DNA of 64,000 nucleotides from Escherichia coli (GTDB lineage Bacteria; Pseudomonadota; Gammaproteobacteria; Enterobacterales; Enterobacteriaceae). Positions 27,501-28,519 of this stretch are shown here, in pieces. The position numbers were made by a program, and so were the translations under genes. The DNA lies in the NCBI RefSeq assembly GCF_013315695.1, contig NZ_CP054353.1; one strand, given 5' to 3'. The notes below the pieces were generated by a model. That model was not told the origin of the DNA, did no database searches, and saw nothing but the letters and a program-made list of their open reading frames with translations. Positions within the stretch are counted from its first letter, which is position 1; every line of letters starts with the position of its first letter.

Positions 27501-27624
27501 GCATGCGGTGGGTACTGGCGTAATGGGCGGGATGATTTCGGCCACTATTCTGGCTATTTACTTCGTGCCGCTGTTCTTTGTGCTGGTGCGCCGCCGCTTC
27601 CCGCTGAAGCCGCGCCCGGAATAA
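24511..27624 (+). CDS. acrD: RND aminoglycoside efflux pump AcrD
   Basis: 1037-aa [24 protein letters not shown]..., AcrB/AcrD family. Confidence 0.95.
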
Positions 27625-27633
27625 GCAATAAAA

Positions 27634-27665
27634 AAGGCGACATGCTAATGTGTCGCCTTTTTCAA
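27634..27665 (+). terminator. Intrinsic terminator after acrD
   Basis: AGGCGACA-loop-TGTCGCCT stem followed by TTTTTC. Confidence 0.7.
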
Positions 27666-27722
27666 TTTTCCGATTAAGAACCTGCTCAGCGGGTTCTTGC
27701 TGTTTGTACTTTGTCTCAGGAA

Positions 27723-27782
27723 TTACTTACGAAGCATAACTTCGATAAAGTCTTTCCAGTTCCCCAGTTCACGTTCAATCAT
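27723..27782 (-). CDS. ypfM: Small protein YpfM (19 aa)
   Basis: Minus-strand ATG...TAA encoding MIERELGNWKDFIEVMLRK with AGAGAGG Shine-Dalgarno 6 nt upstream; matches my recollection of K-12 YpfM; too short for the ORF track. Confidence 0.6.
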   Translation of the reverse strand: MIERELGNWKDFIEVMLRK

Positions 27783-28144
27783 AACAACCTCTCTTATAAT
27801 TATGGGTATTCTACGGAAACAATATACCGTGGTGAAGCTAATTTACTCGATTGCTGCGATGACTACCTCCGGGGGACAAACCTTATGTAAATACTATGGT
27901 CCTGCGGTGATAATTTGTATGTGATACACAGCAACATTTCGAGATATTCATACGGCATCTAATACTGATTTAATTCTGGCTAAAATACAGACAGATAACA
28001 AGATGAATATTTTTAATGTTTACGTTAAAAATGTTTAATATTATTTAATAGTTGTTAATTTGAATACTTCGATAATGTTATATTTCCTGATAATCATTTG
28101 CAGGCAAAATGTTTTCACCCTTAAATGAGTATTTATTCTCATAA

Positions 28145-28519
<375 letters not shown>

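Follow-up and report, generated by a model that had tools for sequence, protein, structure and literature searches.

The 19-codon small-protein gene ypfM between acrD and yffB of Escherichia coli: identity, conservation, and transcript features

The 64,000-nucleotide stretch of Escherichia coli DNA analyzed here (the window) carries, on the minus strand of the gap between acrD and yffB, a reading frame of 19 codons that runs from 27782 to 27723, closes with TAA at 27725-27723, and encodes MIERELGNWKDFIEVMLRK (codons ATG ATT GAA CGT GAA CTG GGG AAC TGG AAA GAC TTT ATC GAA GTT ATG CTT CGT AAG TAA). The frame had been proposed from the letters of the sequence alone, at these coordinates and with this translation, together with its assignment to the small protein YpfM and a suggestion to compare it with the annotated K-12 gene. 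That comparison gave identical sequence: K-12 MG1655 ypfM (b4606; NC_000913.3 2590807-2590866, minus strand), whose product is labeled "uncharacterized protein YpfM," matches the window ORF at 60/60 nucleotides and 19/19 amino acids. As in K-12, the frame is convergent with acrD, which lies on the plus strand and has its stop at 27624, and divergent from yffB, so that gap and strand agree as well. The feature is the already annotated and described E. coli small-protein gene ypfM; the original prediction was correct, and the gene is not new. Its description as lying in AT-rich intergenic DNA just past the acrD terminator also held, with a GC content of 39 to 44% over the ORF and 24 to 29% toward yffB, versus 53 to 61% inside acrD, and with the ORF 59 nt beyond the terminator hairpin (27629..27664) and on the opposite strand. 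Coordinates of all features are collected in Table 1.

Table 1. Features of the ypfM locus, in window coordinates
Feature	Position	Strand	Basis or content
ypfM CDS	27723..27782	minus	Identity to K-12 b4606, NCBIfam NF033843 match, frame kept in 72/80 loci
Shine-Dalgarno AAGAGAGG, core GAGG(U), 5-nt spacer TTGTT to ATG	27788..27795	minus	Read from sequence
Promoter P1: -35 TTCACC (27836-27831), 17-nt spacer, -10 TAGAAT (27813-27808)	27808..27836	minus	Promoter scan
Probable promoter P2: -10-like CATAGT (27898-27893), inferred start 27886-27888	27886..27898	minus	Conservation and RIL-seq ends
Conserved noncoding block, consensus tATTTCAaAATATTGC-N6-GTCACAtaAAAT, in ypfM-yffB spacer	27913..27948	minus	Alignment of ~60 Enterobacteriaceae
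Candidate ArcZ pairing site, mRNA +15..+23 ACUGGGGAA (codons 5-8) with ArcZ nt 67-75 UUCCCUGGU	27760..27768	minus	Cofold, tentative
Extra 3'-UTR hairpin AAGAACC-N-GGTTCTT	27675..27699	minus	Fold; within 36-nt insertion relative to STnc250 model
ypfM intrinsic terminator, stem AAAAAGGCGAC...GTCGCCTTTTT plus U run (hairpin 27629..27664)	27625..27664	minus	Terminator scan
Rfam RF01409 STnc250 ("Hfq binding RNA") match	27624..27743	minus	Last 7 ypfM codons, 3' UTR, terminator

The 581-bp acrD-yffB gap was matched in 5,425 of 5,426 complete E. coli genomes. A 76-nt segment comprising the Shine-Dalgarno (SD) sequence and the ORF was present in 5,424 genomes, and its identity reached 99% or more in 4,785 out of 5,425 matching records. 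Over this gap the window is 100% identical to the blood isolate AF3 (581 bases compared), and K-12 falls short of 100%: over 571 bp of the gap, K-12 is 99% identical, and the six differing positions all lie outside the ORF, the SD sequence, and promoter P1. The label "ypfM: protein YpfM" is carried in RefSeq by the 100%-identical genome and by every one among the matches listed. A search of NCBIfam with the 19 residues plus one appended alanine matched the equivalog model NF033843 (small_YpfM) at 59.2 bits (E value of 2.4e-16; model cutoff, 33 bits), with residues 1 to 19 aligned to profile positions 1 to 19 of 19. Searches with the peptide matched no Pfam model, nothing in PADLOC, and nothing in a PDB sequence library, the last a weak negative because that library covers only chains of at least 20 residues. 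The plasmid sequences matched in a tblastn search with YpfM were all mislabeled chromosomes or chromosomal fragments and thus chromosomal in origin, which identifies ypfM as a chromosomal gene. In one natural isolate an IS1 element is inserted within ypfM, indicating that the gene is dispensable in at least that isolate.

Signals for transcription and translation surround the frame. The last G of the SD sequence lies 6 positions before the A of the ATG, the spacing that had been predicted, and GAGG is invariant in 48/48 aligned orthologous leaders. P1 is a conserved sigma-70 promoter of ypfM: its hexamers are conserved across genera, with TAGAAT, TATAAT, and TAAAAT as variants of the -10 element, and identical hexamers were reported from genomic SELEX as a constitutive RpoD promoter of ypfM, with H-NS in the spacer (Shimada et al.; PMC3946193). 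We infer from the position of these hexamers that P1 transcripts start near 27801 and would carry a ~20-nt A/U-rich leader. A second promoter, P2, probably lies upstream; its RNA in E. coli would be ~260 nt long, ~105 nt of it leader. In the alignment of ~60 Enterobacteriaceae, positions A2, A4, and T6 of its CATAGT hexamer are at least 90% conserved, with CATATT, TAAAAT, and GATAAT in other genera, and the 5'-most ends of ypfM fragments in two RIL-seq libraries (PMC10954441) fall at K-12 positions 2590972 and 2590970 (window 27888 and 27886), with none further upstream. No good -35 element is evident for P2, and a promoter scan of the region did not call it. Combined with the shorter 3' UTR of Salmonella, a P2 leader would predict an RNA of ~225 nt, matching the ~220-nt band published for that organism. 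Farther toward yffB, the conserved spacer block presumably serves to regulate ypfM, the divergent yffB-dapE operon, or both; a by-eye comparison with CRP, Fur, MntR, ArgR, and MarA sites gave no convincing match.

At the other end of the transcript, the terminator scan flagged the hairpin on the minus strand only. Aligned over 49 species, its stem has 11 consensus pairs, and at 7 of these the pairing is preserved through compensatory double changes. Since the hairpin begins 5 nt after the acrD stop and is followed on the plus strand by T-rich sequence, it probably ends acrD too, and would then be shared by the two convergent genes, with its plus-strand use deduced from this arrangement. The part of the 3' UTR from the ypfM stop to the terminator cannot be aligned from one genus to another. 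RNAalifold detected neither a conserved structure nor covariation across the 5' UTR and CDS; the E. coli minimum-free-energy structure folds the long leader back on the start region, and this fold is accordingly unsupported as a conserved feature. What is conserved, then, is the promoter, the SD sequence, the peptide, and the terminator, a pattern that fits a peptide-encoding mRNA rather than a structured RNA.

Taken by itself, a reading frame of this size carries little weight. The window contains 412 ATG ORFs of 15 to 30 codons on its two strands, which places the short ORF alone at chance level, and 19 ORFs of at least 20 amino acids overlap the 900-bp stretch around ypfM. An SD core (GAGG, GGAG, or AGGA) 4 to 14 nt upstream is present in only 10 of the 412, and an SD match of at least 5 nt in only 2, one of which is ypfM. 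It is conservation, as read from aligned orthologs, that is the evidence for a real gene, and not ORF length. We examined the region upstream of yffB in 80 Enterobacterales loci from different species, fetched by YffB homology, a census that covers ypfM copies at the yffB locus only. A YpfM-like 19-codon frame divergent from yffB was found in 72 of them. With the window included, the start codon is ATG in 73/73 sequences, and a stop directly follows codon 19 in 71/73 (TAA in 47, TGA in 21, and TAG in 3). Frame, ATG, stop position, and GAGG are retained throughout the Enterobacteriaceae and also in Dickeya, Yersinia, and one Erwinia-like species. The Erwinia and Lonsdalea loci lack ypfM, and so do three loci of Enterobacteriaceae that have no acrD either. 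Among 50 distinct coding sequences, 7 first, 4 second, and 15 third codon positions vary, and the pooled pN/pS is 0.14, or 0.07 when the freely varying codons 4 and 15 are left out. In the 20 distinct intact 19-residue proteins, M1, I2, E5, W9, K10, F12, I13, M16, L17, R18, and K19 are invariant; a read-through variant in Yersinia has V2. The retention of frame, start, and stop, the concentration of changes at third positions, and the low pN/pS indicate selection on the translated peptide, and, judging by these alignments, the amino acid sequence of YpfM is under strong purifying selection.

Published data bear on both the transcript and its product. In Salmonella, Sittka et al. (2008) described STnc250 as the "ypfM ORF," or ypfM mRNA, between acrD and yffB, a stable short RNA with a Northern signal of ~220 nt and a 4-fold enrichment in Hfq coimmunoprecipitation (coIP; 24 versus 6 reads), and credited the E. 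coli ypfM ORF to Wassarman et al. (2001). In K-12, a proteomics study from 2025 (PMC12529367) detected intact YpfM by top-down mass spectrometry (MS) with 100% coverage and with the initiator formyl group retained; the protein was also detected by DIA and by PRM, MntS and YpfM being quantified in one PRM study, and an earlier detection by Schmidt et al. is mentioned there. Ribo-seq of K-12 (PMC10746267, Table S8) lists ypfM among "previously known sORFs." Its footprints rose at pH 5.8 (log2FC of +0.63; padj of 0.011) and fell 5.7-fold at pH 4.4 (log2FC of -2.51; padj of 7e-20), where its mRNA changed by only -0.35 and its translation efficiency by -1.85 (padj of 0.069). Ribosome profiling or protein detection had been named in the original prediction as the way to check it, and the literature supplies both, so that ribosome occupancy stands beside the match to annotated ypfM. 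As the best explanation of the evidence as a whole, ypfM is very probably a genuine small-protein gene that is independently transcribed and translated. The literature accessible to our search reports no function, phenotype, or partner of YpfM.

The peptide itself offers some indication of how it might act. Nine of its 19 residues are charged, its net charge is 0, its mean Eisenberg hydrophobicity is -0.12, and its longest uncharged run is four residues (LGNW). Given this charge and hydrophobicity, YpfM is not a membrane helix, and a small membrane protein with a single AcrZ-like transmembrane helix is ruled out, there being no stretch long enough to span the membrane. Modeled as a helix, the sequence has a hydrophobic moment of 0.55, which 3% of shuffled sequences attain. 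All seven of its hydrophobic residues (I2, L6, W9, F12, I13, M16, and L17), invariant or nearly so, fall within a 140-degree arc, and opposite this arc sit the hypervariable residues 4 and 15. AlphaFold predicted residues 2 to 18 as helical in both constructs that were modeled, a YffB-linker-YpfM fusion and a 4x tandem of the peptide. From these features, YpfM may form an amphipathic helix whose hydrophobic face binds a larger protein, a reading to which we would give a little short of an even chance. Under this model, YpfM would fold as one amphipathic alpha-helix, and its invariant hydrophobic face would dock on a larger cytoplasmic or membrane-peripheral protein and modulate that protein, in a mode resembling that of other bacterial microproteins encoded on sRNA-sized transcripts. 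Its output would be set by constitutive transcription from tandem promoters, and a posttranscriptional layer could be added by ArcZ/Hfq and by changes in translation efficiency under acid stress.

AlphaFold models of two candidate partners were not favorable. In the YffB-linker-YpfM models, which used a paired alignment of 43 species and were read out by pLDDT only, without PAE or contacts, YffB reached a pLDDT of ~95, while the peptide stayed at 35 to 66 and was not docked. This is a weak negative based on pLDDT only; with the peptide not confidently placed, the models leave YffB unsupported as a partner. For self-association, one tandem model had a mean pLDDT of 64 and the other four of the five had values of 46 to 51, again a weak negative from pLDDT only, and these models do not support self-assembly.

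At the RNA level, a supplement to McQuail et al. (PMC10954441) reports RIL-seq on Hfq in E. coli in which ArcZ:::ypfM chimeras are significant in all 12 libraries, that is, in 3/3 replicates each of N+, N-, N-24, and N-24+2, with odds ratios of 42 to 45 and p values of about 1e-91 to 1e-93 (for example, 92 chimeras at an odds ratio of 45). In this pair, classed as mRNA:sRNA, ypfM takes first place, and ArcZ accounts for about half of all chimeras with ypfM in that place (92 versus 91 with others); only 11% of ArcZ partners persist across all growth states. The chimera data stand in a supplement, and a reading of ypfM as an ArcZ partner is not discussed in the literature examined. Cofolding of the short-leader mRNA with processed ArcZ placed a 9-bp helix at +15..+23, and the same positions were chosen in ~80 to 90% of 66 orthologous segments. 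The energy gain of -11.7 kcal/mol is unexceptional: shuffling the seed 500 times reached it in 77 cases, and shuffling the mRNA 500 times reached it in 21. A windowed duplex scan of ArcZ against the ypfM mRNA found no site better than shuffles, and RNAduplex with full-length ArcZ returned an all-over duplex without meaning.

Modest independent support comes from the synonymous sites within the candidate region, which are nearly fixed. Glu5 is GAA in 50/50 sequences and Asn8 is AAC in 44/44, while Gly7 is GGG in 45, GGA in 4, and GGY in 0, in contrast to glycine at codon 15, which is GGC or GGT in 18 of 22. Leu6 is mainly CTG, CTA, TTA, or TTG, all of which keep the pairing to G74 and U72 of ArcZ. 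A near absence of synonymous change in codons 5 to 9 would follow from an embedded ArcZ pairing site. A weak local hairpin (CUGG-GGAA-CUGG) or codon preference could account for part of the constancy of codons 5 to 8. Folding predictions for the long-leader form of the mRNA pair the candidate site with UCCCCCGG, a stretch of the E. coli leader that is not conserved, and the ~105-nt leader of the upstream promoter would thereby mask the ArcZ site in E. coli. A real ArcZ site in codons 5 to 9 seems to us conceivable, with the balance against it. It is likewise possible, if doubtful, that the ypfM transcript is a constitutive, high-occupancy partner of ArcZ on Hfq, made from tandem promoters and paired within codons 5 to 9, which would serve either as a translation target or as a decoy that buffers ArcZ.

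The relationship of this transcript to Rfam family RF01409 needs some care. In a cmscan search, the window matched the full-length STnc250 model with 37.6 bits (E value of 1.5e-5) and a 36-nt insertion, below the gathering score of 42 bits. Among orthologs, Citrobacter scored 81.5 bits, and Enterobacter and Klebsiella gave nothing at the gathering score. The subthreshold score in E. coli is due to the extra hairpin within the 36-nt insertion and the diverged 3' UTR. RF01409 is effectively specific to Salmonella and Citrobacter and describes the tail of an mRNA, not a noncoding RNA; the E. coli ypfM RNA is an STnc250 homolog by position and content, yet it lies outside Rfam's own membership rule.

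Several other readings of the locus have to be set against a translated small-protein gene. That the frame arose by chance in an AT-rich spacer downstream of a purine-rich run, as the abundance of short ORFs in the window might suggest, is excluded by its conservation, the NF033843 match, and the MS and Ribo-seq evidence, and its probability is negligible. A functional unit that is mainly RNA, with STnc250 acting as an Hfq-bound base-pairing sRNA or as an ArcZ sponge or decoy and the ORF being secondary, could draw on the existence of an Rfam family that matches the locus, on the Hfq enrichment in Salmonella, on ArcZ chimeras that persist in all four growth states when few ArcZ partners do and that make up about half of those with ypfM first, and on the nearly fixed synonymous sites of codons 5, 7, and 8. 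However, conservation acts on the amino acid sequence, as the pN/pS and the mostly third-position variation show; the 3' UTR cannot be aligned between genera from stop to terminator; RF01409 is below gathering in E. coli, Enterobacter, and Klebsiella; and the 5' UTR and CDS have neither conserved structure nor covariation. In addition, the peptide accumulates to levels seen by MS, first place in an mRNA:sRNA chimera is the usual position of a target, and the predicted ArcZ duplex has an unexceptional energy. Given selection on the peptide and unconserved UTRs, a purely RNA-level function is unlikely, and we consider the mainly RNA reading distinctly improbable. A softer version, in which ypfM is a dual-function RNA and both RNA and peptide matter, is more plausible than that, while still falling well short of probable. 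On the Hfq and ArcZ data, the RNA may play a part of its own beside the peptide.

Two further readings turn on the neighborhood of acrD. YpfM might be an accessory or modulator of the neighboring RND pump AcrD, in a role like that of AcrZ with AcrB, acting at a cytoplasmic or peripheral surface. Of the yffB-anchored loci, 70 have both genes, 2 have ypfM alone (one of them truncated), 1 has acrD alone, and 7 have neither, and in Yersinia nurmii ypfM stays beside acrD, with two ORFs between ypfM and yffB. Phylogeny and simple block deletion or insertion are confounders of this association, however; YpfM, unlike AcrZ, has no membrane helix; acrD and ypfM are convergent and not cotranscribed; and an experimental link was not found in the accessible literature. 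It is only gene neighborhood that points, weakly, to AcrD as a partner, and we consider this role improbable. The same adjacency to acrD (70 of the 72 ypfM-bearing loci) enters into a cis-acting reading, in which YpfM would be a leader or arrest peptide that controls termination at the downstream hairpins and hence read-through antisense to acrD. A 19-residue peptide would not leave the ribosomal exit tunnel before release, its core W-K-[DES]-F-I is invariant, and downstream of the ORF come hairpins and a terminator, the latter facing the acrD 3' end. The model fails because no co-oriented gene lies downstream before the terminator and because no conserved alternative (antiterminator) structure was found, nor a conserved structure that links the ORF to the 3' UTR. 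Furthermore, neither the length nor the sequence of the stretch from stop codon to terminator is fixed, the acrD end lying 78 to 461 nt away; after release the peptide persists well enough for several studies to have detected it whole by MS; and in Dickeya the gene has no acrD next to it. Control in cis by the peptide is therefore highly improbable.

YpfM is among the shortest E. coli proteins to have been detected repeatedly, and its recovery here from raw sequence, as a real 19-codon gene missed by length-filtered ORF tracks, serves as a positive control; as this case shows, reading intergenic gaps for an SD sequence followed by an ATG can work. The handles toward its function are the invariant hydrophobic face, the two free positions, the acrD-yffB linkage, the tandem promoters, ArcZ, and the decrease in translation under acid. 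Novelty is left in how YpfM functions, in the probable upstream promoter, in the partnership with ArcZ and the synonymous constraint that may go with it, and in the strongly conserved block of the ypfM-yffB spacer.

Compared with known systems, the closest is K-12 YpfM itself, which has the same sequence, length, strand, neighbors, SD sequence, promoter, and terminator, with no difference within the gene. STnc250 of Salmonella occupies the same locus and strand, and the terminal Rho-independent terminator hairpin is common to both RNAs, but the E. coli 3' UTR has a 36-nt insertion that includes an extra hairpin. AcrZ, a 49-amino-acid transmembrane-helix partner of the RND pump AcrB, resembles YpfM in being a small protein in the context of an RND pump, given that ypfM adjoins acrD at nearly all ypfM-bearing loci; YpfM differs from it in being highly charged and amphipathic, without a membrane-spanning stretch, and we know of no YpfM-AcrD interaction. 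MntS (42 amino acids) and SgrT (43 amino acids) are cytoplasmic regulatory microproteins of E. coli that are nonenzymatic and are thought to bind a larger protein. Like YpfM, they are very small and encoded on short, sRNA-sized transcripts, whereas YpfM is half their size and has no sequence similarity to them. SgrS/SgrT, Spot 42/SpfP, and AzuCR/AzuC are dual-function RNAs and resemble ypfM in that one short transcript associates with Hfq and also codes for a small protein that has been detected. The ypfM RNA differs from these in occupying the target position opposite ArcZ in RIL-seq and in being poorly conserved outside the ORF and the terminator, and it may join the dual-function RNAs if its link to ArcZ proves to be regulatory.

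A conserved -10-like hexamer upstream of ypfM, CATAGT, lies 5 to 7 nt before the 5'-most ypfM fragment ends in the RIL-seq data (K-12 positions 2590972 and 2590970). This suggests a second ypfM promoter and, with it, a leader of ~105 nt that the annotation lacks. Nearer the gene, the sequence directly upstream of the -35 element of the proximal promoter, P1, carries a semi-palindromic motif, (C)AATCACAGYRATTG. Some genera have this motif as a perfect palindrome, and the E. coli version (ATCGCAGCAATCG) is degenerate. The motif could serve as a binding site for an activator or a repressor.

Farther upstream, the ypfM-yffB spacer contains a noncoding block (consensus tATTTCAaAATATTGC-N6-GTCACAtaAAAT) that is conserved about as strongly as the ypfM ORF itself in an alignment of roughly 60 Enterobacteriaceae. 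In most genera the block includes a 7-bp inverted repeat, AATATTT-CA-AAATATT, and it is located a short distance upstream of the promoter that Shimada et al. (PMC3946193) proposed for yffB. Comparison of this block by eye with the sites of known factors (CRP, Fur, MntR, ArgR and MarA) gave no convincing match. The yffB gene is followed on the plus strand by dapE and then the 66-aa ypfN, in the same order as in K-12, and the AlphaFold fold of YffB has very high confidence (pLDDT ~95; 43-species alignment).

Coordinates of features in and around ypfM (bare coordinates, window; L-prefixed loci from other genomes, own coordinates)
Feature	Coordinates	Strand	Genome or remark
Extra hairpin, ypfM 3' UTR	27675-27699		E. 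coli and E. albertii
Semi-palindromic motif	27848-27861	minus	
-10-like CATAGT through 5'-most RIL-seq fragment ends	27886-27898	minus	
Conserved noncoding block	27913-27948	minus (as read)	
yffB	28163-28519	plus	ArsC family, 118 aa
ypfM ortholog, no stop after codon 19	L029 2052-2111		Lelliottia nimipressuralis; ends ...MLRND
ypfM ortholog, no stop after codon 19	L073 898-957		Yersinia nurmii; read-through as ...MLRKA
64-aa ORF (MNYLKASSVH...), unrelated to ypfM	L082 2162-2356	minus	Erwinia endophytica
Natural ypfM knockout	L084 1700-2545		E. coli Res13-Sevr-PER06-05-b-A, NZ_CP062815.1

Within the ORF, codon usage is odd at codons 5 to 8 (27760-27770). Gly7 is encoded by GGG or GGA in all 49 sequences and never by GGC or GGT, in contrast to the glycine at codon 15, which is mostly GGC or GGT; the alternative codon is never used for Glu5 or Asn8 in the sequences compared. 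Among 73 ypfM sequences, only those of L. nimipressuralis and Y. nurmii lack a stop right after codon 19, the former apparently through loss of one base in the last codon. The natural knockout carries an IS1A insertion after codon 9, flanked by the target duplication GGAACTGG, and PGAP still calls a spurious "ypfM" across the IS junction (ISWSHYRNWKDFIEVMLRK, ATT start). In E. endophytica, the 64-aa ORF occupies the expected place of ypfM in the acrD-yffB interval, is preceded by GAAGGAGGGG, and may represent a different small gene in this slot. Several ypfM-bearing PLSDB "plasmid" records recovered by similarity search (among H28 to H37) are 0.7 to 5.4 Mb in length and are evidently chromosomes or chromosomal fragments wrongly labeled as plasmids.

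Downstream of the ORF, the extra 3' UTR hairpin is also terminator-like in a plus-strand scan, where it follows acrD. In the alignment to the Salmonella/Citrobacter STnc250 model, the segment holding this hairpin appears as a 36-nt insertion.
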